From assembly GCA_046095965.1 (NCBI GenBank), contig JBJTJO010000123.1, positions 1 through 37,926 on the forward strand: a DNA stretch of 37,926 nt. The letters run 5' to 3'. A model generated the notes under the pieces. It had not been told where the DNA came from, searched no databases, and saw only the letters and a list, made by a program, of their open reading frames with translations. This DNA is from Planctomycetaceae bacterium. GTDB lineage: Bacteria > Planctomycetota > Planctomycetia > Pirellulales > UBA1268. How positions within the stretch are numbered: position 1 is the stretch's first letter; the number at the start of each line of letters is the position of its first letter. A program made the position numbers and the translations under genes. Of this stretch, positions 1,680 through 36,279 are shown in pieces.

Positions 1680-2647
1680 TTCGGCGTCGGCGCGCGATAG
1701 TCGGCCAGGTTCACCGACTGAAACCACTCGATCGTCTTCGCCAGCCCCTCGCGCAGGGGCACCTTCGGCTCCCAGCCGAGCCGCGTTTTCGCGAGCGTGA
1801 TGTCGGGCCGGCGCCGCTCGGGGTCGTCCACCGGCAGCGGCTTCTCGACGAGCTTCGACTTCGAGCCCGTGAGCTCGAGCGTGAGCTCCGCGAGCTGCCG
1901 GATCGTGAACTCGCCCGGATTGCCGATGTTGACCGGACCGACGAAGTCGTCCGGACCGTCCATCATCCGGATCATCCCCTCGACGAGGTCGTCGCGGTAA
2001 CAGAAGCTGCGGGTCTGGGCGCCCGTGCCGAAGATCGTGATCGGCTCGCCGAGGAGGGCCTGGCGGATGAAGTTCGAGACCACGCGGCCGTCGTAGGGAT
2101 GCATCCGCGGGCCGTAGGTGTTGAAGATGCGCACGACGCGGACGTTGACCCGGTTGACGCGGTGGTAGTCCATGAACAGGGTCTCGGCGGCCCGCTTGCC
2201 CTCGTCGTAGCACGCGCGCGGGCCGATGGGGTTGACCGCGCCGCGGTAGGTCTCAGGCTGCGGATGCACCTCGGGGTCGCCGTAGACCTCGCTCGTCGAG
2301 GCCTGGAGCACCTTCGCCCGGCAGCGGCGGGCCATGCCGAGCACGTTGATCGCCCCCAGCACGCTCGTCTTCATCGTCTTGATCGGGTTGAACTGGTAGT
2401 GCCCGGGGGACGCGGGGCAGGCGAGGTTGTAGATCTCGTCCACCTCGAGCCAGAGCGGGTGGACGACGTCGTGCCGGATGAGCTCGAAGTTCGGCTTGCC
2501 CAGGAGGTGGGCGACGTTCGACTTCTGGCTGGTGAAGAAGTTGTCGATGCAGACCACGTCATGGCCCGCGGCCACGAGCCGCTCGCAGAGGTGGCTGCCG
2601 AGGAACCCGGCGCCGCCGGTGACGAGGATGCGCTTGAGTGAGGGCAT
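1673..2647 (-). CDS. uxs: UDP-glucuronate decarboxylase (UDP-xylose synthase), extended SDR
   Basis: 324 aa. [18 protein letters not shown] is the Rossmann motif and YDEGKRAAE is the catalytic Yxxx[11 protein letters not shown] and the overall layout are typical of UXS-type decarboxylases. Confidence 0.9.
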
Positions 2648-2767
2648 GGGACGGTCCGCGGATCGACGAGCGGCTGCGGTCGGACGCTTTCAGGAGCCCC
2701 GGCCGAGTGGTAGTGTACCGATCGGGAACGCCGCTGCACGCGTCCCGTCCGCGTGGTGATCCTCGTC

Positions 2768-3703
2768 ATGTCCGATCGCGTCGATCGCCGCACCGCCCTC
2801 AGGACCGCCGCGGCCACCGGGGCCGCGGCCCTGGCCATGCCCGCCACGTTCATACCCCCAGCCCAAGGAGCCGTCGCCGTGAAGGGTCGCATCAAGCAGT
2901 CACTCGTGTTCTGGTGCTACCACATTGCCGGCGACAAGTGGGACCTCGAGAAGACCTGCCAGGTCGCCAAGGACCTCGGCTGTGGCTCGATCGAGCTCAC
3001 GGAGCCTTCCCAGTGGCCGACGCTCAAGAAGCACGGCCTCACCTGCGCCATCGCCCCCAACGGCATGCCGGGCGCGCCCTTCATGAAGGGGCTCAACAAC
3101 CCGCGCTACCAGGACGAGGTGATCGCGCGGACGACCGAGATGATCGACGCCTGCGCGGCCGCGGGCGTGCCCGCGGTGATCGCCTTCACCGGCTACCGGT
3201 GGCGCGACGCCGAGGATCCGAAGAGCGGCGAGATTCCGGCGGCCGAGGGGGCGGCCAACTGCGTGGCGGCGCTCAAAAAACTCGCGCCGCACGCCGAGAA
3301 GCAGGGCGTCACCATCTGCCTCGAGCACCTCAACACCCGCGACGACACGCACCCGATGAAGGGTCACCCGGGCTACCAGGGGGACGACATCGACTACGTC
3401 GCGAACATCATCCGGTCGGCCGGCTCGCCGCGCGTGAAGCTGCTCTTCGACTTCTACCACGTGCAGGTGATGAACGGCGACCTGATCCGGCGGGTCGAGC
3501 AGTGCAAGGACGTGATCGGCCACATCCACGTCGCGGGCAATCCCGGCCGCGGCGAACTCGACGAGGCGCAGGAGATCAACTATCCGCCGCTGATGCGGAA
3601 GCTCCTCGACATGGGCTACACCGGCTGGGTGGGACAGGAATTCATCCCCACGCGGGACGCCCTGGCAGGACTGAAGCAGGCGGTCTCGCTCTGCGACGTG
3701 TGA
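2768..3703 (+). CDS. hydroxypyruvate-isomerase-like / sugar phosphate isomerase-epimerase (xylose isomerase-like TIM barrel) with a Tat signal
   Basis: Uses the inner ATG at 2768 (the track ORF begins at a GTG at 2753). The N-terminus MSDRVDRRTALRTAAATGAAALAMPA is a twin-arginine signal. CLEHLN, GHIHVAGNPGR.ELD and GWVGQEF are typical of Hyi/AP-endonuclease-2 TIM-barrel proteins. Confidence 0.8.
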   Translation: MSDRVDRRTALRTAAATGAAALAMPATFIPPAQGAVAVKGRIKQSLVFWCYHIAGDKWDLEKTCQVAKDLGCGSIELTEPSQWPTLKKHGLTCAIAPNGMPGAPFMKGLNNPRYQDEVIARTTEMIDACAAAGVPAVIAFTGYRWRDAEDPKSGEIPAAEGAANCVAALKKLAPHAEKQGVTICLEHLNTRDDTHPMKGHPGYQGDDIDYVANIIRSAGSPRVKLLFDFYHVQVMNGDLIRRVEQCKDVIGHIHVAGNPGRGELDEAQEINYPPLMRKLLDMGYTGWVGQEFIPTRDALAGLKQAVSLCDV

Positions 3704-26927: not shown

Positions 26928-28160
26928 TCACGGCAGCATCACCCCGGCGATCGCGGCGGAGAGGGCCGTGGCGAGCGTCGAGATGACGAGCATCTTCACG
27001 CCCAGCCGCGCGAGGTCGTCCTGCCGCTCGGGCACGAGGGCGCCGATGCCGCCGATCTGGATGCCGATGCTCGAGATGTTGGCGAAACTGCACATCGCGA
27101 TCGTGGCCAGCGCGACGCCCTTCGGGGAGAGCGACTCCTTGAGGGCGCCCATGTCGAAGTAGGCGATGAGCTCGTTGAGCACCGTGCGCGTGCCGAGCAG
27201 GCCTCCCACTGCGGTGCAGTCGGCCCAGGGCACGCCGATGAGCCAGGCGACCGGCGCGAAGACCAGGCCGAGGAGCCGCTGCAGCGAACACTCCGGCCAG
27301 CCGAGGAGGCCGCCGACCCAGCCCAGGGCCAGGTTCGCGAGGGCCACCAGCGCGATGAACGAGATGAGGATGGCCGCCACGTTCGCCGCCAGGAGCATCC
27401 CCTCGCGGGTCCCGCGGGCCGCGGCGGCGAGCACGTTGCCGTCGAGCCGCTCGTTCGACACGTGCAGCGTGCCGAGCGTCTCGGGCACGCCCTCCTCGGG
27501 GATGAAGATCTTCGTGAGGTAGATCGTGGCCGGAAAGCTCATGAGGATCGCGGTGAGCAGGTCCCGCGACGCACAGCCCGCGGCCATGTAGGCGCCGAGG
27601 ATGCCCCCCGACACCAGGCCCATGCCGCTGACCATGACGACGGCGAGCTCGGACCGCGTCAGCCGGGCGAGGTAGGGGCGGATGACGAGCGGCGCCTCGG
27701 TCTGCCCGAGGAAGATGCTGGCGGCGGCGTTGAGCGTCTCCGCGCCGCTCGACCCGAGCACCTTGGCCGTCACCCAGGCGAACGCCCGCACCACGACCTG
27801 CATGACCCCGAGGTGGTAGAGCACCGCGAACAGCGCGGCCACGAACACGATCGTGGGCAGCACGCGGAAGGCGAACACGAAGCCCGCGGGGCCGGCAGGA
27901 TCGACGAGCTTGTCGCCGAACACGAACCGCGCGCCGGTCGCGGCGCAGGCGAGCACGCTCTCCACCCACTGCGCGGCCCAGTCGAGCGCCGATCGCCCCG
28001 CCTCGAACCGCAGGAGCAGGAACCCGAACAGGCACTGGAGACCCAGGCCGCCGAGCACCATCCGCGGCGAGATCCGCCGGCGGTCCTCGGAAAACAGGTA
28101 CGCGGTGGCGAGGATGGCGGCGACACCGAGGAGTCCCTGCCAGCGGCCGAGGTCGGGCAT
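26928..28160 (-). CDS. nupC: concentrative nucleoside transporter (NupC/CNT family)
   Basis: 410 aa and polytopic. GARFVFG, FAFRVLPTIVFVAAL, ASIFLGQTEAPLVIRPYL, LTRSEL and MCSFANISSIGIQIGGIG are characteristic CNT motifs. Confidence 0.9.
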   Translation of the reverse strand: MPDLGRWQGLLGVAAILATAYLFSEDRRRISPRMVLGGLGLQCLFGFLLLRFEAGRSALDWAAQWVESVLACAATGARFVFGDKLVDPAGPAGFVFAFRVLPTIVFVAALFAVLYHLGVMQVVVRAFAWVTAKVLGSSGAETLNAAASIFLGQTEAPLVIRPYLARLTRSELAVVMVSGMGLVSGGILGAYMAAGCASRDLLTAILMSFPATIYLTKIFIPEEGVPETLGTLHVSNERLDGNVLAAAARGTREGMLLAANVAAILISFIALVALANLALGWVGGLLGWPECSLQRLLGLVFAPVAWLIGVPWADCTAVGGLLGTRTVLNELIAYFDMGALKESLSPKGVALATIAMCSFANISSIGIQIGGIGALVPERQDDLARLGVKMLVISTLATALSAAIAGVMLP

Positions 28161-29518
28161 CGGTGCGTTCCTGCGTGGGGATGTGCCCGCGGTGAAGCGG
28201 AAGAGGACGAGAGGCGTTCGAGCACGCGCGGGGCGGGGGGGGGCGGCTCGGGGCCGTTCTCGAGGGCCGCGGCGAGCAGTTGCGGGACGGCGGGCACCGC
28301 GGCGGCGTGCTCGGGGTTGAAGCGCAACTCGGCGATCGCGGCGCCGGCGGCGACCGGCTCGCCCACCTTCGCGTGCAGGATGATGCCCGCGGCGGGGTCG
28401 ATGCGATCGGCCACCGTGCGGCGGCCGGCACCCAGAAGCATCGACGCCTGGCCGACCGGCCAGGCGCGGAGCCGCGTCACGAAGCCGACGCGCGGCGCCC
28501 GGACCGATTCTGACCGCGTCGCCCGTGGCAGCACGCCCTCGGGATCGTCACACACCCGCGGATCGCCCCCCTGCGCCGCCACCACGCGGCGGAACCGCTC
28601 GAGGGCCGAGCCATCGGCGAGCGCGCGGAGGCAGCGGCCGAGCGCCGCCTCGCGGTCGGCGGCCACGCCGGCGGCCACGAGCATCTCGGCGGCGAGTTCG
28701 AGCGACACTTCCATGAGGTCGGCCGGCCCGCGGCCCTGCAGGCACTCGACGCTCTCGAGGACTTCGAGCGCGTTGCCCACCGTGCGGCCCAGCGGCGCGT
28801 CCATGCTCGTGATCAGGGCCCGCACGGGCGTGCCGAGCCGGCGGCCGATCGAGGTCATGCTCTCGGCGAGGGCCCGGGCGTCGTCGCGCCGCGCCATGAA
28901 CGCGCCGTCGCCGGTCTTCACGTCGAGCACGAGGGCGTCGATCCCCTCGGCGAGTTTCTTGGAGAGGATCGAGGCCGTGATGAGCGGGATGCTCTCGACG
29001 GTCGCCGTGGCGTCGCGGAGGGCGTAGAGCACGCGGTCGGCCGGCGCGATCTCGGCCGTCTGACCGGCGAGCACGAGGCCGCAGTCGCGGGCGATCCGGC
29101 GGTAGGAGGCGAGGTCCACGTCCACGGAAAAACCCGGAATGCTCTCGAGCTTGTCGAGCGTGCCGCCGGTATGGCCGAGGCCGCGGCCCGAGACCATCGG
29201 CACCGTCGCCCCGCAGGCGGCCACGATCGGCGCGAGCACCAGGCTCGTCTTGTCCCCCACGCCGCCGGTCGAGTGCTTGTCCACCTTGGGGCCGGGGATG
29301 TCGGCGAGGTCGATCACCGTGCCCGAGTGGAGCATCGCATCGACGAGGGCCGCGGTCTCTCCCGGCGTCATGCCCCGCCAGACGATCGCCATGCAGAGGG
29401 CCGACCACTGGTAATCGGGCACGGCGCCCGAGCCGATGCCATCCACGAGGAAGCGGATCTCCGCGGCGGTGAGCGCGGCGCCGTCGCGCTTCCGGCGGAT
29501 GAGATCGACCGCTCGCAT
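27770..29518 (-). CDS. deoA: thymidine / pyrimidine-nucleoside phosphorylase; the homologous part ends near 28210, but the ORF reads on about 146 codons into nupC
   Basis: IRRKRDG..L, KHSTGGVGDKTSL, VSGRGLGHTGGTLDKLESIPG and SILSKK are family motifs. The recognisable domain is about 436 aa (29518..~28211), the normal length for this family. The next in-frame stop is at 27770, 391 nt inside nupC, and the tail is Ser/Arg/Cys/Pro-rich junk-like sequence. Confidence 0.85.
   Translation of the reverse strand: MRAVDLIRRKRDGAALTAAEIRFLVDGIGSGAVPDYQWSALCMAIVWRGMTPGETAALVDAMLHSGTVIDLADIPGPKVDKHSTGGVGDKTSLVLAPIVAACGATVPMVSGRGLGHTGGTLDKLESIPGFSVDVDLASYRRIARDCGLVLAGQTAEIAPADRVLYALRDATATVESIPLITASILSKKLAEGIDALVLDVKTGDGAFMARRDDARALAESMTSIGRRLGTPVRALITSMDAPLGRTVGNALEVLESVECLQGRGPADLMEVSLELAAEMLVAAGVAADREAALGRCLRALADGSALERFRRVVAAQGGDPRVCDDPEGVLPRATRSESVRAPRVGFVTRLRAWPVGQASMLLGAGRRTVADRIDPAAGIILHAKVGEPVAAGAAIAELRFNPEHAAAVPAVPQLLAAALENGPEPPPPAPRVLERLSSSSASPRAHPHAGTHRCPTSAAGRDSSVSPPSSPPRTCFPRTAGGSRRGWCSAAWVSSACSGSCSCGSRRGDRRSTGPRSGWRACSPAPRPARGSCSATSSSILPAPRASCSPSACCPRSCSWPRCSRCSTTSGSCRSWCGRSPG
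28235..28243. repeat. G9 homopolymer (C9 on the coding strand) at the end of the thymidine phosphorylase domain
   Basis: It was read directly from the sequence and encodes the PPP of EPPPPAP. This tract is prone to indel errors and slippage. Confidence 0.9.
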
Positions 29519-29548
29519 CGAGTCGCTCCCGTGGGCCCCGGGCCCGGA

Positions 29549-30184
29549 TCAGTGGCGGGCCGCCGTGCCGAACTGCCGGTCGCCGGCGTCGCCGAGGCCA
29601 GGCACGATGAAGCCCGAGTCGTCGAGCCCCTCGTCGAGCGCGGCCACGTGGATCGTCACGCCGGGCATGCCCCGCTCGAGCGTCGCCACACCCTGGGGGC
29701 TCGCGATCAGGGCCACGAACACGATCCGCCTCACGCCGGCCGCGCGGAGGATCTCGCAGGTGCGGACGGCCGAGCCGCCGGTGGCGAGCATGGGGTCCAC
29801 GACGATCGCGACCTCCGCGTCCACGTCGGCGGGCAGCTTGTTGTAGTACTCCCGCGGCTCGAGCGTCTGCTCGTCACGAAACAGCCCCACGTGCCAGACC
29901 TCGGCGTCGGGGATCATTTCGAGGAGGCCGTCGGCCATGCCCAGGCCGGCGCGGAGGATCGGCACGATCGCGATCCGGTCCTCGACGCGGCGGCCGGCCG
30001 CCTCGCCGAGCGGCGTCGCGGCCCGGACCTCGCGGGCGGGCAGGTCGCGGGTCGCCTCGTAGCCGAGCAGCCGGGTGAGTTGCCGCACGACGCGGCGGAA
30101 CTCCGCCGGCTTCGTCGCGGGATCGCGAAGCGCGACCACGTGGTGCGCGACCAGCGGATGCGCGGAGACGTGGACGCCGGCCAT
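29549..30184 (-). CDS. upp: uracil phosphoribosyltransferase
   Basis: Uses the inner ATG at 30184 (codon 12 of ORF 29549..30217). ILRAGLGM, the PRPP loop VVDPMLATGGS, and the C-terminal GLGDAGDR are Upp signatures. Confidence 0.9.
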   Translation of the reverse strand: MAGVHVSAHPLVAHHVVALRDPATKPAEFRRVVRQLTRLLGYEATRDLPAREVRAATPLGEAAGRRVEDRIAIVPILRAGLGMADGLLEMIPDAEVWHVGLFRDEQTLEPREYYNKLPADVDAEVAIVVDPMLATGGSAVRTCEILRAAGVRRIVFVALIASPQGVATLERGMPGVTIHVAALDEGLDDSGFIVPGLGDAGDRQFGTAARH

Positions 30185-30192
30185 GGCTGCTT

Positions 30193-30245
30193 CCCCGGAA
30201 CGAATCGACGCGATCATATCCCGTCCCCGGCGAATGTCGACCGCG
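30193..30245. promoter_or_regulatory. imperfect direct repeat (ccccgg..cgaat..cgac..cg, two copies) in the divergent upp / cdd promoter region
   Basis: The copies are ccccggaacgaatcgacgcg (30193..30212) and ccccggcgaatgtcgaccgcg (30225..30245), separated by atcatatcccgt. This is a possible regulator binding site; nothing further can be shown from the sequence. Confidence 0.2.
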
Positions 30246-30268
30246 CGGCGTCACGGTAGACTCTCGTC

Positions 30269-30715
30269 ATGTCCCATCAAGCCGGGGAATCCGAGGCGGT
30301 CGATCCGCTCGTCGCGGCGGCGCGGAAGGCCGCCGACAACGCCCATGCCCCGTATTCCGGCTGGCACGTGGGCGCGGCGGCCGTCTTCGCCGGTGCCAGC
30401 GGGCCGCCGTTCGTGGGCGCGAACGTCGAGAACGGCTCCTACGGCCTCACGCTCTGCGCCGAGCGGACGGCGATCTCGGCGGGCGTCGTGGCCGGCCACC
30501 GCCGGCTCGTGCGGCTCGCGCTCACCTGCACCGACGCCGCGGGGCAACGGGTCACCGGCATCGTGCCCTGCGGCGCGTGCCTGCAGGTGATCGCGGAGTT
30601 CGGCACGCCCGACACCGCGATCGTGATCGACGGCGGCGGCACGTTCCGCCTCGCCGACTTCCTGCCCCGGCCCTTCGGCACGGGCGTCGACGTGCCCCGC
30701 CGGGCGCCGTCCTGA
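30269..30715 (+). CDS. cdd: cytidine deaminase
   Basis: 148 aa. The zinc ligand motifs are CAER (LCAERTA) and PCGACLQ. Size and layout fit a homotetrameric-type Cdd. Confidence 0.9.
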   Translation: MSHQAGESEAVDPLVAAARKAADNAHAPYSGWHVGAAAVFAGASGPPFVGANVENGSYGLTLCAERTAISAGVVAGHRRLVRLALTCTDAAGQRVTGIVPCGACLQVIAEFGTPDTAIVIDGGGTFRLADFLPRPFGTGVDVPRRAPS

Positions 30716-30721
30716 CCCGCC

Positions 30722-31960
30722 TCAGCGGCCCACGTCGAGGCAGATGAGCGTCGCGTCGTCGCGGAGGTAGAGGCGGCCGCCCGCGAGGGCGGGCAGGGCC
30801 CGCACCGTGCCGGAAAGCGGCCTGCACCGCGCGAGCACCTCGAGCCGCTTGGGGTCGGGCCGGACGAGGAGCACCTCGCCGTCGGTCTTCGCCACCACGA
30901 GCTTGCCGTCGGCGACGACGAGCGTGCCGTACGCGTCGAGCCGCTCGCGCCAGGCTTCGCGCCCGGTCGCCGCCTCCACGCAGACGAACTCCGCCGGCGG
31001 CACGTCGTCGCGGCCGTCCAAGCAATAGAGATGGTCTCCCACGAGCACCGGCGTGCAGTACTGGCTGGCGAGCGGGCCCTCGCCCTGCCAGGCGGGCTTC
31101 GCGGCCGCCCGGTCGAAGGCGGCGCAGACGCAGCCGATCCCGTAGGCGCTCGTGACGAGGACGCGGTCTCCGCCGATCACGACGGGCGACGCCCCATTGA
31201 CCGTCGGCCCCCGCTGGCCGAAGGGAAACTGCCAGGCCACGTCGCCCGTGACCGGATCGAGAAGCAGGCACGAGAGCCGGGTGACCATGAGCACGTGCGG
31301 CCGACCGGCGACCTCGAGAGCCACCGGCGCCGAGTAGCTCGCCGCCTCGGCCGTGCGCTGCCAGAGCGTGGCCCCCGTGTCGAGCGCGCAGGCGACGATG
31401 CCGGCGTCGCCCCGGCCGCCGACGTTCACGATCACGCGATCGCCCATGACGAGCGGCGTGGAGCCCGCGCCGAAGTAGCCCTCCGGCGCCGCGAACTCGC
31501 GGTGGGTCTCCCGCGACCAGCGTCGCGTGCCGGTCGCGAGATCGTGCGCCGCGAGCACGCCCTGGGCGCCGAACGTGATCACGGTGCCCGCGTGGACGAC
31601 CGGCGTGCAGAGCGGCCCGTCCCCACCGCCGACCTGCGGCCGGAACCGCGTCGGCTGGTCCGCCTGCCACAGGGTCTTGCCCGTCGCCGCGTCGAGCGCC
31701 TCGACGATCTCGCGGTCGCCCTCGCGGTGGAAGAGGATCGCCCGCCCGCCGACCACCGCCACGCCCGCGTACCCCGCGCCGACCGGCCGCTTCCAGATCA
31801 CCGCCGGGCCGGCGGCCGGCCAGGTGTCGGCGAGTTGCTCGTCGGCCGCCGCGGCGCCGGTCCGCGCGGGCCCGAGGATCTGCGGCCAGTCACCGCCGCG
31901 GACGGCCGCCGCCGTGAGGGCGACCCAGAGCCACGCCGCCCCGGCCGCGCGGTTCGTCAT
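30722..31960 (-). CDS. secreted PQQ-like (BamB-type) beta-propeller repeat protein
   Basis: Uses the inner ATG at 31960 (last 412 codons of ORF 30722..33391). The signal peptide is AAWLWVALTAAAV. Repeated blocks of the form ...ALDAATGKTLWQ, AHDLATGTRRWS, ALDTGATLWQ, LLDPVTGDVAWQ, VEAATGREAWR are typical of PQQ-like propeller blades. An ATGA overlap joins it to the kinase gene. Confidence 0.8.
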   Translation of the reverse strand: MTNRAAGAAWLWVALTAAAVRGGDWPQILGPARTGAAAADEQLADTWPAAGPAVIWKRPVGAGYAGVAVVGGRAILFHREGDREIVEALDAATGKTLWQADQPTRFRPQVGGGDGPLCTPVVHAGTVITFGAQGVLAAHDLATGTRRWSRETHREFAAPEGYFGAGSTPLVMGDRVIVNVGGRGDAGIVACALDTGATLWQRTAEAASYSAPVALEVAGRPHVLMVTRLSCLLLDPVTGDVAWQFPFGQRGPTVNGASPVVIGGDRVLVTSAYGIGCVCAAFDRAAAKPAWQGEGPLASQYCTPVLVGDHLYCLDGRDDVPPAEFVCVEAATGREAWRERLDAYGTLVVADGKLVVAKTDGEVLLVRPDPKRLEVLARCRPLSGTVRALPALAGGRLYLRDDATLICLDVGR

Positions 31961-33678
31961 GTCGCCTGTCCGCGCTGGCGGAAATACTTGTAGCCCGGCA
32001 CCATGAAGCAGACGGCGCTCACGAGGCCGAAGATCACGTGCTGCCACGCGGGCACGAGGCACATGACGAGCGCCGTGGCGAAGAGCACCGCCGCCTGGAT
32101 GTAGAAGGCCCCGGAGAGGATGCCGGCCTTGGCGAGGAACACCGTGCCCGCCAGGAGCGCGAGCACCGGCGAGAGCGTGAGCACCGGCAACCCCAGGAGC
32201 GCCTCGACGCCGAACAGGAGCACGCTCGCCACCACGCTCGCGCCCCAGACGTGGGCCACCTGCCGCTCGACGGCCGTGACCGGCCCGGTGCGATGCCGCA
32301 GCGCCCAGAAGATCGGCGCCCAGAGCGCGAGGCCGCCGCCCCAGAGCACGAGGTAGGGCCAGCGCTCCGCGACCCCCTGCCAGGCGAGCACGTCGGTCGT
32401 CACGCACAGGCCGAGGATCACGACCGAGTGCCACATCCAGAGCAGGCCCCAGTTCTCGAGCACGACGGCGTGGTGCGTCTCGCGGAAGAGTCGCGCGACC
32501 ACGTCCCCGAGGCCACCGCGGCGGGCGGCGACCGGCTCGCCGGCGAGGAACGCGCGGAGGTCGGCCGCGAGCGCCGCGGCCGAGGCGTAGCGGAGGTCGG
32601 CCGGCTTCTGCAGGCTCTTCAGCGCGATGAGCTCGAGGTCGCGATCCACGCCGGGGGCGAGCGACCGCGGCAGCGGCGGGTCGCTCTCGAGCACCGCGAG
32701 GAGCGTGTCCATGGCGCCGCCGGCCTGAAAGGGCGGCCGGCCGGTGAGCATCTGGTAGAGGATCGCGCCCAGGCTCCAGACGTCGCTCGCCGGGCCGACG
32801 TCGCCGCGGCTGCCGGCCGCCTGCTCGGGCGACATGTAACAGGGCGTTCCGAGGATGGCGCCGGTGTGCGTGACGGACATCTCGTCCTCGAGCCGCTTGG
32901 CGAGGCCGAAGTCGGAGACCCGCGGCGCGCCCGTCGCGTCGATGAGGATGTTGGAGGGCTTCAAATCCCGGTGGAGCACGCCGCGGTCGTGGGCGGCCTG
33001 CACCGCGTCGGCGACCTGCGCCAGGAGCCCGGCTGCCTCCCGCGGCGGCAGCGGACCGGCGGCCAGCCGCTTCGACAGCGTCGTCCCCTCGACGAGCTGC
33101 ATGCTGTAGAAGGGGTGGCCGTCGTGCTCGCCGACCTCGAAGATCGACACGATCCCGGCGTGGTCGAGGCGGGCCGCGGCCTCGGCCTCGCTGCGGAAGC
33201 GGGCGAGGTCGGCCGGCGTGGCGAGGTCGCGGCGGAGGAGCATCTTCACGGCCACCGTGCGGCCGAGGCTCTTCTGGGTCGCGCGGTAGACGACGCCCAT
33301 GCCGCCCCGGCCGATCTCCTCGACGAGCTCGTAGTCGCCGAACGCGAGGGGGAGCGGGGCGGACCCCGGCACGAAGCCGCCGCCCCCCCACGAGTCCGCG
33401 ACCGGCCCGACCGCCACCGGTCCGGAGCGGTGATCACCGGCCGCGACCAGGATCGTGGACCGCTCCGCGACGGCGTCGGCCACCGACATCGCGGCGAACA
33501 CCTCGCGCAGTTCGCCGGCGAGGTCGGGATGATCGCCCGCGAGCCGCTCGAGCGCGGCCTGCGCCGCCGGACCGCGGATCTCCGAGAGCGATTCCACGAG
33601 CGCCGCCAGCCGCTCCTCGCGGTCGGGCTCGAGCGGCGCGGTGCCGGCCGGCGGCCGGGTGATCGTCGGTGGGGTCAT
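31957..33678 (-). CDS. Ser/Thr protein kinase with a C-terminal 6-TM domain
   Basis: IGRGGMGVVYRA, AVKML, HRDLKPSNILI, SDFGLAK and GTPCYMSPEQ form a Hanks-type catalytic core. Six hydrophobic helices follow (LLWMWHSVVILGLCV ... VIFGLVSAVCFMVPG). Confidence 0.9.
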   Translation of the reverse strand: MTPPTITRPPAGTAPLEPDREERLAALVESLSEIRGPAAQAALERLAGDHPDLAGELREVFAAMSVADAVAERSTILVAAGDHRSGPVAVGPVADSWGGGGFVPGSAPLPLAFGDYELVEEIGRGGMGVVYRATQKSLGRTVAVKMLLRRDLATPADLARFRSEAEAAARLDHAGIVSIFEVGEHDGHPFYSMQLVEGTTLSKRLAAGPLPPREAAGLLAQVADAVQAAHDRGVLHRDLKPSNILIDATGAPRVSDFGLAKRLEDEMSVTHTGAILGTPCYMSPEQAAGSRGDVGPASDVWSLGAILYQMLTGRPPFQAGGAMDTLLAVLESDPPLPRSLAPGVDRDLELIALKSLQKPADLRYASAAALAADLRAFLAGEPVAARRGGLGDVVARLFRETHHAVVLENWGLLWMWHSVVILGLCVTTDVLAWQGVAERWPYLVLWGGGLALWAPIFWALRHRTGPVTAVERQVAHVWGASVVASVLLFGVEALLGLPVLTLSPVLALLAGTVFLAKAGILSGAFYIQAAVLFATALVMCLVPAWQHVIFGLVSAVCFMVPGYKYFRQRGQAT

Positions 33679-33736
33679 GGCACGTGTTCTGGCGGTGGAC
33701 GCAGCAGCATGCTAGGCGCCGCGCCGGCGGCGGACA

Positions 33737-34381
33737 TCACGCCTCCGGCTGGAGCAGGCTCCGCAGCCGGCGCATGGCCCGCAGGTAGCGCATCCCGGCC
33801 GCGGGCGTGGAGATCCCCAGGGCGTCCGCCGCCTCGGCGGTGGACAGGTGCTCGAAGTGCTTGAGGAGCACGATCCGCCGGTCGGGTTCGTCGAGCGCAT
33901 CGACGGCGGCGGCGAACCGCCGTTCGAGTTCGTGCCAGGTCGCGGCGGCGGCCGGGGTGAGTTCGCGGTCGGTCAGATCGGCCGCCGGGCCGGCCCGGGA
34001 GTCGTCGGAGTCGGCGCCGCCGAGCGGCACCTCGCGGTCGAGGCTGCGGACGCCCGCCACGCGATGCCGCCGGTGGGCGTCGATGAGCCGGTCGCGGGCC
34101 ATGTGCCGCAGCCACAGTCCGAACGGCATCGTGGGGTTGGCGAGGTAGTCGCGGAGCCGCCGGTTGGCCTCGACGAGCACGTCCTGGACGATGTCGCTCG
34201 CATCGACCCGGCGCTGCACAACGCGGTCCATCCGGCGGTCGATGAGCCGCCGGATGGCGTCGCGGTGGCGGGCCAGGAGGCGGTCGATGGCGGAGCCGTC
34301 GCCACGCCGCACCTGGTCCAAGAGGGCCACCGTCGGGGACGGATCCCCGGCGCCGCGTCCGGGGTCGGCGGTGCTGGTCAT
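33737..34381 (-). CDS. ECF-type RNA polymerase sigma-70 family factor
   Basis: Uses the inner ATG at 34381 (codon 56 of ORF 33737..34546). Region 2 is DASDIVQDVLVEANRRL ... FGLWLRHMARDRLIDAHR. Region 4 is LDEPDRRIVLLKHFEHLSTAEAADALGISTPAAGMRYLRAMRRL. No anti-sigma gene is adjacent; the next gene, 58 nt downstream, is the kinase. Confidence 0.85.
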   Translation of the reverse strand: MTSTADPGRGAGDPSPTVALLDQVRRGDGSAIDRLLARHRDAIRRLIDRRMDRVVQRRVDASDIVQDVLVEANRRLRDYLANPTMPFGLWLRHMARDRLIDAHRRHRVAGVRSLDREVPLGGADSDDSRAGPAADLTDRELTPAAAATWHELERRFAAAVDALDEPDRRIVLLKHFEHLSTAEAADALGISTPAAGMRYLRAMRRLRSLLQPEA

Positions 34382-34480
34382 GGGGTCGGATTGGCCGGTG
34401 GTGCGAGACCTCCATCGTACCAACGTGTCGCCCCGGCGCGGTGGTGACGGTCGGGGTGGGATTTTCGACGGCGCCCGGGC

Positions 34481-34510
34481 CACGGCCAAAAATTTTCGCG
34501 TTTCCTCACG
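34481..34510 (-). promoter_or_regulatory. candidate ECF-type promoter (minus strand: TGAGGAAAC-N15-CGTG) about 100 nt upstream of the sigma gene
   Basis: The minus strand reads cgTGAGGAAACgcgaaaatttttggcCGTG. An AAC...CGT pair at about this spacing resembles ECF promoters, and the spacer is unusually AT-rich for this genome. The resemblance is weak. Confidence 0.2.
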
Positions 34511-34620
34511 CGCCGGCGTTTTGCCCGCGCGCCCGGCGTGATCCATAATCGACGGCGGTCATCGGACGGACCGCTGTCGCCGCGACAGGACGCGGCCCCC
34601 CCGGCGATCGGATCGCTCCA

Positions 34621-36279
34621 GTGACTGGCGTCTCGCTCCCGACGTCGTTTCGCCTGCGGCTCTGCGCCGCGGCCACCCTCGCCCTGGCGGCGGTCACGGG
34701 CCGCCCCGCCGCGGCCCAGTCCCACGCCGACGACCTCGCCGTCCGCGCCGAGTCGCTCGCCCTCGAGGGCCGCTGGGCGGATCTCGTCAGCATCTGCGAG
34801 ACGGCCGCCCGCAAGGGGGCGCTGGCGCCCGCGCTCCGGGAGCGCTACGACCTCGCCAAACTCCACTGCGACGTCGCCCGTCGGCACGCCGAACCGGCTT
34901 TCCGTCGGCAGGTCGCCGACCTCTCCGAGGCCGACGCCCGCCGCGTCTACGGCGAGGTGCTGGGGCGGATCGGCTCGCACCACGTCGAGACCCCCGACTT
35001 CGCCCGGCTCGCGGCCCGGGGCCGCCGGGCCGTCGATGTCGCCCTCGACGAGCCGGCCTTCGTGGCGCTCCACGCGCCGCAGGCCACGGCGGATCGCCGG
35101 GCGCTCTACGCGGACCAGGTCGCCCGGATCGCCGCCGCGCGGCCCGTCGCCACGCAGGCCGACGCCGAGGCCAGTGCCGCCTGGATCGCCCGGGCGGCCC
35201 ACTCGCTCCTCGGCGTGGCCCCCGCCGTGACACTCCTGGAGATGTCCGCGGCCGCCGTCGGGGGTCTCGACGAGTACTCCGCGTTCCTCACGAACGGTCA
35301 GCTCGACGACCTCCACGCGCAGATCGATGGGCGGTTCGTCGGTCTCGGCGTGGAGCTCAAGACCGCGGCCGACGGCCTGCTTGTGGTGCACGTGATCCCC
35401 GGCAGCCCCGCGGAGCGGTCGGGCATCCGCGCCGGCGACCACCTCGTGGGGGTCGGGGGCCGGCAGATCGGCGGCCTGGGCGTGGACGAGGCCGCGCAGC
35501 TCCTCCAGGGCCCCGAGGGATCGCTCGTCACGCTCGCCATCCTCCGCGGTCCCGGCCCCGCGCGGGCCGTCACCGTCCGCCGCGAGCACGTGGATGTGCC
35601 GAGCATCGAGCAGGCCCGCGTCCTCGATCCGGCCTCCGGCGTCGCGACGCTCAAGCTCACGTCGTTCCAGAAGGGCACGGCCGCCGAGCTCGACGCCGCG
35701 CTCAAGCGGCTCGACGCGGCCGGCATGCGGGCGCTGGTCATCGACCTGCGTGGCAACCCCGGCGGCCTGCTCGCGGCCGGCGTGGACGTGGCCGACCTGT
35801 TCCTCGAACGCGGCCTGATCGTCGCCACCCGGGGCCGCAGCCCGGAGGAGGACTTCAACTACTCCGCGGGCCGGCCCGGCACCTGGCGGATGCCGCTCGT
35901 CGTGCTCATCGACGGCGACTCGGCGAGCTCGAGCGAGATCTTCGCTGGCGCGATCCGCGACCACGGCCGCGGCACGATCGTGGGAGCCCGCAGCTACGGC
36001 AAGGGCACGATCCAGGGCATCTTCCCGCTGCAGGCCGCGGGCGTCGGCATGCGGCTGACGACGGCGAAGTTCTTCTCGCCCCGCGGCCTCCCCTACAGCG
36101 GCGTCGGCGTGACGCCCGACGTGCCGCTGCAGATCACGGCCCGGCCGGCGGCTGACGGGTCGTTCGCGGAACCCGCCGGTGACCCGGCCCTCGACGCGGC
36201 CGCCGAGGTGGCCCGCCGGGCTCTCGTGCCCCGGCCGGTCGCCACGCAGCCCGGCGCCCGGACCACGGCCGCGCGGTAG
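34621..36279 (+). CDS. S41 family C-terminal processing (tail-specific) peptidase with PDZ domain
   Basis: The start is a GTG at 34621 (uncertain). The signal peptide is LRLCAAATLALAAVTGRPAAA. The PDZ domain contains GLGVEL...VIPGSPAERSGIRAGDHLV. S41 catalytic motifs are DLRGNPGGLL, DGDSASSSEIFAGA and SYGKGTIQ. Confidence 0.9.
   Translation: MTGVSLPTSFRLRLCAAATLALAAVTGRPAAAQSHADDLAVRAESLALEGRWADLVSICETAARKGALAPALRERYDLAKLHCDVARRHAEPAFRRQVADLSEADARRVYGEVLGRIGSHHVETPDFARLAARGRRAVDVALDEPAFVALHAPQATADRRALYADQVARIAAARPVATQADAEASAAWIARAAHSLLGVAPAVTLLEMSAAAVGGLDEYSAFLTNGQLDDLHAQIDGRFVGLGVELKTAADGLLVVHVIPGSPAERSGIRAGDHLVGVGGRQIGGLGVDEAAQLLQGPEGSLVTLAILRGPGPARAVTVRREHVDVPSIEQARVLDPASGVATLKLTSFQKGTAAELDAALKRLDAAGMRALVIDLRGNPGGLLAAGVDVADLFLERGLIVATRGRSPEEDFNYSAGRPGTWRMPLVVLIDGDSASSSEIFAGAIRDHGRGTIVGARSYGKGTIQGIFPLQAAGVGMRLTTAKFFSPRGLPYSGVGVTPDVPLQITARPAADGSFAEPAGDPALDAAAEVARRALVPRPVATQPGARTTAAR

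Follow-up and report, generated by a model that had tools for sequence, protein, structure and literature searches.

This analysis concerns a three-gene operon in a stretch of 37,926 nucleotides (nt) from a Planctomycetaceae bacterium (GenBank assembly GCA_046095965.1, contig JBJTJO010000123.1, positions 1 to 37,926 of the forward strand), referred to here, at its full length, as the window. The operon encodes a sigma factor of the extracytoplasmic function (ECF) type, a Hanks-type Ser/Thr kinase with six transmembrane (TM) helices and a secreted beta-propeller. The interpretation that we favour, and consider fairly probable, is that the locus is a two-gene sigma-kinase module resembling the planctomycete subgroup ECF59s1, to which the propeller has been joined as an optional component in the sub-lineage of the window. 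The three genes are as follows.

33737..34381, minus strand: ECF sigma factor gene (ATG at 34381, stop ending at 33737; 214 amino acids, aa)
31957..33678, minus strand: Hanks kinase gene (ATG at 33678, TGA at 31959-31957; 573 aa)
30722..31960, minus strand: propeller gene (ATG at 31960-31958, stop ending at 30722; 412 aa)

The sigma-kinase-propeller operon

A reading of the strand between 30650 and 34620, together with the list of open reading frames (ORFs), confirmed the anatomy proposed in an earlier, sequence-only reading of this DNA: three linked minus-strand genes with a spacing of 58 nt between sigma and kinase, followed by an ATGA overlap in which the TGA of the kinase and the ATG of the propeller are joined. 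Hundreds of homologues with 65-95% identity were found for each of the three products, and all three can therefore be taken as real genes. No anti-sigma domain was detected by Pfam and NCBIfam scans in the flanking genes, in the N-terminus of the kinase or in its TM domain, which bears out the earlier observation that the sigma factor has no recognisable anti-sigma neighbour.

A start of the sigma gene at the ATG at 34546 (giving a gene at 33737-34546 on the minus strand) was considered and rejected. That ATG sits in the conserved -10 box of the promoter of a divergent S41 peptidase gene, and the stretch from 34546 to 34381 was rejected as coding on the grounds that it shows no conservation at the protein level and varies in length out of frame among relatives. 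The start at 34381 is preferred for these two reasons. Public gene calls give the sigma factor as a protein of 248-263 aa by way of the ATG in the -10 box (for example at 2382-3152 of locus L001).

Conservation of gene order among relatives

Gene order was compared across two sets of loci. The close set came from a scan with the six-TM domain of the kinase, taking one genome per species, which gave at least 575 matches; the set consists of the 80 best-matching loci, 74-95% identical, and of L001. Nearly all of the 80 are from metagenome-assembled genomes (MAGs) of freshwater origin labelled Planctomycetota, Planctomycetia, Pirellulales or Planctomycetaceae. The distant set, in which the kinase is 48-60% identical, was taken from 80 further loci returned by a metagenome scan that used distant TM domains as its seeds.

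Among the 78 close loci, one per species, whose sequence extends far enough, the sigma gene lies directly upstream of the kinase gene in 71 and no more than 5 kb from it in all; elsewhere in this set the kinase alone is inverted (five loci) or an insertion separates the two genes (two loci). At the distant loci a sigma gene (product 45-64% identical) is found directly upstream of the kinase in 34 of the 41 that could be assessed, often with a 4-nt overlap. The tie between ECF sigma factor and Ser/Thr kinase that was noted from the sequence is thus conserved at both distances. A divergent gene for an S41/PDZ peptidase is present in every close locus with sufficient sequence and was not found at the distant loci.

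The distribution of the propeller is different. It follows the kinase in 23 of the 71 close loci that could be assessed and is missing from the other 48. On a tree of the kinases the propeller-bearing loci form two neighbouring clades, with secondary absences in L015, L019 and L024, where no more than about 50 nt separate a cytidine deaminase gene from the 3' end of the kinase gene. By the ORF calls made here kinase and propeller are at most 3 nt apart in 14 of the 23 loci, so that the propeller start often overlaps or abuts the kinase stop, an arrangement suggestive of translational coupling. Orthologues of the propeller down to 66% identity (P0384, P0341, P0413) were found only directly 3' of a six-TM kinase, and what follows them varies between a cytidine deaminase gene and a DUF1501/PSCyt/PSD1 cluster. 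At the distant loci a PQQ_2 homologue (27-33% identical) occurs within 8 kb in just four cases and is never adjacent, and no conserved third gene follows the kinase there, its place being taken by genes for MIOX, GH97, an aminotransferase, UvrD, a thioredoxin-like protein and others. No fusion of kinase and propeller was found among 349 representatives of the TM-domain family, among longer members of the family or among the 120 best propeller homologues. Kinases with and without a neighbouring propeller are 75-90% identical, and a comparison of their periplasmic loops found no propeller-specific signature.

The ancient unit is the pair of sigma factor and kinase; the S41 gene is a neighbour at the level of the clade and the propeller an addition at the level of a sub-clade. 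The earlier proposal of the propeller as a third component does not hold for the family, given its absence from 48 of 71 close loci and its lack of adjacency at the distant ones. The linkage of the propeller to the pair, on which that proposal depended, is accordingly not conserved family-wide (23 of 71), but it is kept within the sub-lineage of the window, where orthologues occur only 3' of the kinase.

Several further observations were made on the close set. In L038, L040, L042, L068 and L071 the divergent S41/sigma pair is intact and the kinase is inverted. The gene for a type III glutamine synthetase is also syntenic with the sigma-kinase pair across the close clade. The remaining close loci are labelled Candidatus Kuenenia, Chitinophagaceae or 'uncultured bacterium', and 'Planctomicrobium piriforme' is also among the titles. 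The odd labels (on L006, L020, L024, L025, L027, L038, L064 and others) look like mis-assigned taxonomy, because these MAGs are 80-87% identical to Pirellulales-labelled ones and have a G+C content of about 74%.

The sigma factor

The sigma factor matches the Pfam domains Sigma70_r2, Sigma70_r4_2 and Sigma70_ECF. Of the NCBIfam models TIGR02984 (Planctomycetaceae-specific subfamily 1) fits best, with a score of 177 bits that falls just below the cut-off of 183.75. Homologues comprise 79 close orthologues (67-89% identical) and 35 distant ones (45-64% identical), nearly all of them encoded directly upstream of a six-TM kinase. The most distinctive feature of the protein lies in region 2.2.

34193..34204, minus strand: motif D60-A61-S62-D63 of sigma region 2.2, in which Ser replaces the Glu of the canonical DAED and both Asp are kept

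The sequence RVDASDIVQDV around this motif is unvarying across the 79 close orthologues. In the 35 distant homologues the motif reads D[VA]SD, or GVSD in three of them, with the Ser again unvarying, and Ser62 is therefore invariant in 79 + 35 = 114 homologues. Aligned with solved structures, the DASD of the window corresponds to D-V-D-D in CnrH and to E-A-Q-D in sigma-H (PDB 6in7). The linker between regions 2 and 4 is longer than that of CnrH (PDB 4cxf) by some 8 residues, an approximate figure taken from a single pairwise alignment, and carries further conserved Ser and Thr residues at S113, S128, T142 and T148. By analogy with kinase-linked sigma factors elsewhere, Ser62 would be the leading candidate for a phospho-acceptor, and the four linker residues would be alternative sites. 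Because both Asp of the motif are kept, the sigma factor is probably not fully inactive in its unphosphorylated state, unlike EcfP of group ECF43. The switch may then be graded and not all-or-none, with a basal sigma activity.

The kinase

The kinase, which is 78-92% identical over its full length across the best 120 protein clusters, can be divided into three parts.

33334..33678, minus strand: N-terminal extension, residues 1-115 (conserved helical segment at about 18-70, then a Gly/Pro-rich linker)
32524..33333, minus strand: Hanks-type Ser/Thr catalytic domain, residues 116-385 (Pkinase at residues 116-322, E-value 2.9e-48)
31960..32523, minus strand: C-terminal membrane domain, residues 386-573 (juxtamembrane helix and six TM helices, loops of at most 8 residues)

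The N-terminal extension had been put at about 95 aa; with the Pkinase match starting at residue 116 the figure is corrected to about 115 aa. Its pattern L..L.E.L...P.L..ELRE.F is common to homologues that are only 43-52% identical. A Pfam search of the extension, in which anti-sigma families (zf-HC2, RskA and others) were included, returned only noise even at E-values up to 10. A plausible role for this extension would be to dock the sigma factor.

The catalytic domain fits the description of a Hanks-type kinase in having a Gly-rich loop, the Lys of VAxK, the Glu of helix alpha-C, HRDxKxxN, DFG, APE/SPE, the Asp of subdomain IX and the Arg of subdomain XI. All of these motifs are intact (G123-V130, K145, E164, HRDLKPSN at 236-243, DFG at 256-258, SPE at 283-285, D299 and R363), and across 18 diverse kinase homologues K145, E164, HRDLKPSN, DFG, SPE, D299 and R363 are invariant or nearly so. 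Weak Pfam matches to APH (phosphotransferase) also fall on this domain.

The six C-terminal TM helices that had been read from the sequence were confirmed by hydropathy and by an AlphaFold model of residues 385-573 (predicted local distance difference test score, pLDDT, 89.9), which shows one juxtamembrane helix and six long helices. By hydropathy, model and Pfam alike the kinase has short loops only, without an extracytoplasmic domain and without tetratricopeptide repeats (TPR). Conserved motifs of the TM domain are RETHHAxVLENWG, VERQxAHxW, LGLPxLTLxP, KAGILSGxFY and PGLKY. If the topology is N-in, with the kinase domain in the cytoplasm, RETHHAxVLENWG, R461, VERQxAHxW and KAGILSGxFY would lie at the cytoplasmic ends of helices and LGLPxLTLxP would be the only conserved motif to face the periplasm. 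This predicted placement of most conserved polar motifs on the cytoplasmic side, with one on the periplasmic side, points to sensing within the membrane. The six-TM domain defines a small family with 349 representatives at 50% identity (E-value up to 1e-3), in which it is nearly always C-terminal to a kinase. A Foldseek search of the PDB with this domain gave a designed helical barrel as its best match (E-value 1, template-modelling score 0.42).

Two loci in long-read-style assemblies, L083 (6299-11803) and L084 (7099-8531), have the kinase called as two genes, one for the kinase domain and one for a TM protein of 176-195 aa. These split kinases are probably frameshift artefacts and not TM proteins that exist on their own. 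At L083 a PQQ_2 gene, itself split, lies 1.9 kb downstream, past two phosphatase genes on the opposite strand.

The propeller

The propeller matches Pfam PQQ_2 with an E-value of 4.7e-34, and its AlphaFold model is eight-bladed (pLDDT 81.7; predicted template-modelling score, pTM, 0.84). The 25 top Foldseek matches to this model are all BamB, the best with an E-value of 6e-18 and a template-modelling score of about 0.75 (up to 0.77) at 18% identity. Sequence matches in the PDB span just one or two blades. The protein begins with a signal peptide.

31892..31960, minus strand: Sec-type signal peptide of the propeller, residues 1-23 MTNRAAGAAWLWVALTAAAVRGG, followed by DWPQ (from comparison of 41 orthologues)

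The leader varies in sequence across the 41 orthologues; its n-region is basic, its core is hydrophobic, and the invariant (D/E)WPQILGP comes directly after it. The AlphaFold model of this segment is helical and of low confidence. The earlier description of a PQQ-like propeller with a signal peptide is therefore upheld by both the domain match and the leader comparison. No conserved Cys that could form part of a lipobox follows the signal peptide in the 41 orthologues.

Two possible identities were rejected. The propeller is not considered to be the BamB of this organism, in view of the missing lipobox, a score against TIGR03300 of 63.2 bits compared with a cut-off of 285.2, and its patchy distribution; the automatic name 'BamB' that relatives carry in Joint Genome Institute annotation is a label at the level of the fold. 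Nor is it considered to be a pyrroloquinoline quinone (PQQ)-dependent dehydrogenase, as it scores 37.7 bits against TIGR03075, for which the cut-off is 480, and has a length of 412 aa where about 550-700 aa is expected. The propeller evolves faster than the other two proteins of the operon, with 63-87% identity among relatives compared with 73-90% for sigma factor and kinase.

Flanking genes and the sigma-S41 intergenic region

The genes that flank the operon are listed here.

34621-36279, plus strand: gene for an S41/PDZ (Ctp-like) periplasmic peptidase, divergent from sigma (Pfam Peptidase_S41 and PDZ)
about 36558 to the end of the window, plus strand: type III glutamine synthetase gene, beyond the S41 gene
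30269-30715, plus strand: cytidine deaminase gene, convergent with the propeller gene and downstream of it

Beyond the cytidine deaminase gene lie upp and genes for a pyrimidine nucleoside phosphorylase and a nucleoside transporter. This pyrimidine-salvage cluster (26928-30715) adjoins the operon, the 3' end of the deaminase gene being 7 nt from the propeller stop; in several relatives the 3' ends of the two genes overlap by about 10-25 nt. The whole window contains no tRNA genes, and neither the sigma-S41 intergenic region nor the window as a whole gave a match in Rfam.

The intergenic region between the sigma and S41 genes is 239 nt long and contains two conserved elements.

34414..34429, minus strand: extended -10 element (TGn-TAnnAT) upstream of sigma, GACACGTTGGTACGAT, with the -10 hexamer TACGAT at 34419-34414
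34521..34620, plus strand: S41 promoter of sigma-70 type, TTGCCC-17-CATAAT at 34521-34549, followed by a leader (identified by motif conservation)

The element that points towards sigma has the consensus GACACGTTGGTA(C/G)GAT. In 68 of 77 close loci the 250 nt upstream of sigma contain the string TGGTAnnAT, compared with 0.6 expected from shuffled sequences; none of 34 distant loci has it. This conservation suggests that a housekeeping-type promoter with an extended -10 element serves the operon. The S41 promoter is the only match of sigma-70 type in 4.3 kb. In relatives it takes the form TTGACC-17-CATAAT, and the core GATTATG is present in 70 of 73 loci. Its leader of about 65 nt is conserved and contains two hairpins, GCGGTC...GACCGC and GCCGCG...CGCGGC, for which compensatory changes were seen in 3 of 10 pairs, a limited covariation; a conserved AACGGATTGC stands immediately before the GTG start of the S41 gene. 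No conserved autoregulated promoter of ECF type is evident upstream of sigma in the close loci. Neither conserved element looks ECF-like, and no sign was seen that the operon or the S41 gene is under the control of this sigma factor.

Two other features of the region can be recorded. A semi-conserved motif ACGACCGTCACCACC is present at about 34440-34460 on the minus strand, 8-10 nt upstream of the GACACGTTGGTA element, and recurs at the matching position in L017, L027, L035, L041, L061 and L079, that is, only in the clade of the window and in adjoining ones; it may be bound by a regulator or act as a -35-like element. A run of A/T precedes the S41 promoter in the window and in L001-L082. The sequence was found only in DNA metagenomes from freshwater, aquaculture and groundwater, and no RNA runs carrying it are listed.

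Placement among the ECF groups

Group ECF59 is said to have been first named ECFSTK1, by Jogler et al. in 2012. As described in the published classification, its subgroup s1 is found only in Planctomycetes and lacks an anti-sigma factor; the kinase gene, at position +1, specifies a protein with six TM helices, the sigma linker is about 6-10 aa longer than usual, the kinase gives weak matches to phosphotransferase domains, tetratricopeptide repeats are the only further conserved neighbour, and the predicted promoter feature is given as "TC in -35" (Casas-Pastor et al., bioRxiv 10.1101/2019.12.11.873521). A review gives Ser as the phospho-acceptor that has been proposed for ECF59 and ECF60 (PMC8103513). 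Group ECF43, by comparison, has the DAED/DxxD of the sigma factor replaced by an uncharged QTTA or STTA in which the Thr is phosphorylated (PMC8999054, PMC13147305); the 2021 classification restricts it to Proteobacteria, with kinases that combine a single TM helix and periplasmic TPR (Casas-Pastor et al. supplement). Phosphorylation of a sigma factor by the neighbouring kinase has been shown directly for EcfP/PknT and EcfK/PknS, both of ECF43 (PMC8999054, PMC13147305). The N-terminal extension of PknS has 83 aa and is of unknown role (PMC13147305). The kinases linked to ECF62 have a fused WD40 propeller (Casas-Pastor et al. supplement).

Set against these descriptions, the sigma factor of the window best matches ECF59 subgroup s1. 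The sequence-only reading had placed the locus in ECF43 and had described that group as common in Planctomycetes. Three defining features of ECF43 fail here, the motif being DASD, the kinase having six TM helices and the relatives being labelled Planctomycetota where ECF43 is known from Proteobacteria only; all of the features of ECF59s1 that could be tested are present. For these reasons the locus is considered ECF59s1-like and not a member of ECF43. The same reading mentioned a Vibrio sigma factor activated by phosphorylation, an example of which is EcfP with its kinase PknT in Vibrio parahaemolyticus (PMC8999054). It was right that the propeller falls outside the published model of kinase-linked ECF systems, the description of ECF59s1 making no mention of one.

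A proposed mechanism and its alternatives

By analogy with the systems in which phosphorylation has been demonstrated, the module may work as follows. The six-helix domain, itself embedded in the bilayer, would respond to a condition of the membrane or envelope, and this would switch on the cytoplasmic kinase. The kinase would then phosphorylate the sigma factor, at Ser62 and/or at the Ser and Thr residues of the linker, and phosphorylation could tune the binding of the sigma factor to the core of RNA polymerase and hence expression of the regulon. The propeller would be an optional periplasmic accessory to this pair, either a modulator or co-sensor of a kinase that is itself almost without loops or a co-expressed envelope protein, and not a core third component.

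The part played by the propeller can be read in two other ways. The sequence-only reading suggested that it is the ligand-sensing partner of the kinase; docked on the periplasmic face of the six TM helices, it would complete a two-polypeptide receptor kinase that controls the sigma factor. This is attractive in that the kinase has no extracytoplasmic domain of its own where other sigma-linked kinases have one (TPR in ECF43, fused WD40 in ECF62), and it finds some support in the close spacing of the two genes (at most 3 nt for 14 of the 23), in the restriction of propeller orthologues, down to 66% identity, to the position directly 3' of the kinase despite differing next genes, and in the conservation of LGLPxLTLxP on the periplasmic face. 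Nothing that was found shows such a partnership, however, and we think it rather unlikely: 48 of 71 orthologous loci do without the propeller, including the secondary losses in L015, L019 and L024; kinases with and without it are 75-90% identical and their periplasmic loops carry no signature of its presence; those loops have at most 8 residues, and under the presumed N-in topology the conserved polar motifs other than LGLPxLTLxP are cytoplasmic; no fusion turned up among 349 family representatives or 120 propeller homologues; and PQQ_2 proteins near distant loci number only four within 8 kb, none adjacent. The patchy and lineage-restricted presence of the propeller, its clean losses, its faster evolution (63-87% compared with 73-90% identity) and its lack of co-variation with the kinase would suit a simple cargo, that is, an envelope protein that shares the operon transcript or is one of the outputs of the sigma factor, and BamB-like propellers are generic scaffolds for protein-protein interaction. 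Such a role is possible, if less than probable, since a cargo would not be expected to keep exclusively to the 3' side of the kinase, apparently in translational coupling with it, across differing downstream contexts, and the promoter upstream looks to be of housekeeping type, so that the propeller would be co-expressed with the regulators and not induced by them. A bolder extension, in which a freshwater planctomycete lineage recruited a secreted BamB-like propeller as the ligand-binding subunit of a loop-less kinase acting on Ser62, and so made the first three-component kinase-ECF pathway, is a speculation that we regard as unlikely. Under this last reading the divergently encoded S41/PDZ protease might act on the propeller or on its ligand, by processing or by release.

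Two further alternatives concern the switch itself. The kinase might be an anti-sigma factor in disguise, its helical N-terminal extension holding the sigma factor at the membrane so that release, and not phosphorylation, is what activates it. The helical segment is conserved in sigma-linked six-TM kinases, PknS has a comparable extension of 83 aa (PMC13147305), and a sigma factor that has kept both Asp of DxxD may bind core intrinsically and would need restraint. We nevertheless judge this improbable, as the kinase N-terminus amounts to only about three short helices and matches no anti-sigma family even at E-values up to 10, and the strict conservation of the catalytic residues implies that kinase activity is under selection. 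Far less credible still is an ECF43 system like EcfP/PknT, in which the sigma factor would be inactive for want of an acidic DAED until phosphorylation of a Thr restores the charge. A kinase at +1, the absence of an anti-sigma factor and the Pfam Sigma70_ECF match are all that such a system shares with the window. The DASD motif keeps both Asp and contains no Thr, and TPR are missing from the kinase, which has six TM helices. The 2021 classification limits ECF43 to Proteobacteria, whereas the relatives found here are labelled Planctomycetota and the best model, TIGR02984, is specific to planctomycetes.

The ECF59s1-like module with an optional propeller remains the interpretation that we prefer, and several points weigh against it. 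The position of Ser62 is occupied by Gln in sigma-H, which is regulated by an anti-sigma factor, and by Asp in CnrH, so that a Ser here does not of itself imply a phospho-switch, and D60 and D63 are retained in the motif. Phosphorylation of the window sigma factor is argued by analogy, kinase control in ECF59 being so far a prediction. ECF217 and ECF61 are close alternatives to ECF59, the assignment to which was made by comparison with published descriptions. The six-TM domain, to which sensing is attributed, has no Pfam match (E-value up to 10) and no solved structural relative. Finally, it is the conservation of a motif that suggests promoter function for the extended -10 element.

Significance

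The control of an ECF sigma factor by a kinase is a recently established form of regulation, shown so far only for EcfP/PknT and EcfK/PknS, and the planctomycete groups ECF59, ECF61, ECF62 and ECF217 are still predictions. The sigma-kinase pair described here belongs to a group that has already been catalogued in planctomycetes. The sub-family to which the locus belongs is unusually well conserved and is abundant in freshwater Planctomycetota (at least 575 matches to the six-TM domain in species-representative genomes), and it offers a clean test case for whether sigma phosphorylation reaches beyond ECF43 and, if so, how it acts when the acidic core-binding motif is retained. The assets of such a test are an invariant Ser within an intact DxxD, an all-membrane sensor without a known relative in fold, and natural variants with and without the propeller. 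Nothing established is overturned by these findings; their main value lies in a corrected classification and in concrete sites and natural controls for experiments.

Comparison with known systems

The closest described counterpart is ECF59s1. The window locus agrees with it in its planctomycete relatives, the kinase at +1, the six TM helices, the APH matches, the longer linker and the Ser in a DAED-like motif. It differs in that the published context names neither a PQQ/BamB-like propeller nor an S41 protease, both of which are present at the window locus.

The ECF43 pairs EcfP/PknT of Vibrio parahaemolyticus and EcfK/PknS of Xanthomonas citri likewise lack an anti-sigma factor and have a co-transcribed membrane Hanks kinase with an N-terminal extension. 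Phosphorylation of the sigma factor in region 2.2 and/or the linker has been demonstrated in those systems and is presumed by analogy at the window locus. The motif that carries the acceptor Thr in ECF43 is QTTA or STTA, whereas the sigma factor of the window has DASD; the ECF43 kinase is a proteobacterial protein with one TM helix and periplasmic TPR, whereas that of the window comes from Planctomycetota and has six TM helices and no periplasmic domain.

Kinases fused to an extracytoplasmic propeller include PknD of M. tuberculosis (NHL) and AfsK of Streptomyces (PQQ repeats). These and the ECF62-linked kinases resemble the window locus in that a beta-propeller is tied to a bacterial Hanks kinase as its presumed sensor. 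In all of them the propeller is on the kinase chain after a single TM helix; at the window locus it is a separate secreted protein, and the kinase chain crosses the membrane six times and has its C-terminus in the cytoplasm. The propeller shares with BamB (YfgL) an eight-bladed fold of PQQ_2 type and a length of about 390 residues, and differs from it in its 18% identity, the absence of the lipobox Cys, the low score against TIGR03300 and its presence in only part of one clade.

A last parallel is found in RseB, the product of the third gene of rpoE-rseA-rseB. The gene for this soluble periplasmic modulator of signalling shares a transcript with those of an ECF sigma factor and of the membrane protein that regulates the factor. 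Many lineages lack RseB, and it provides a precedent for an optional periplasmic accessory such as the propeller. RseB differs from the propeller in having another fold and in binding the periplasmic domain of an anti-sigma factor, and its pathway works by proteolysis instead of phosphorylation.

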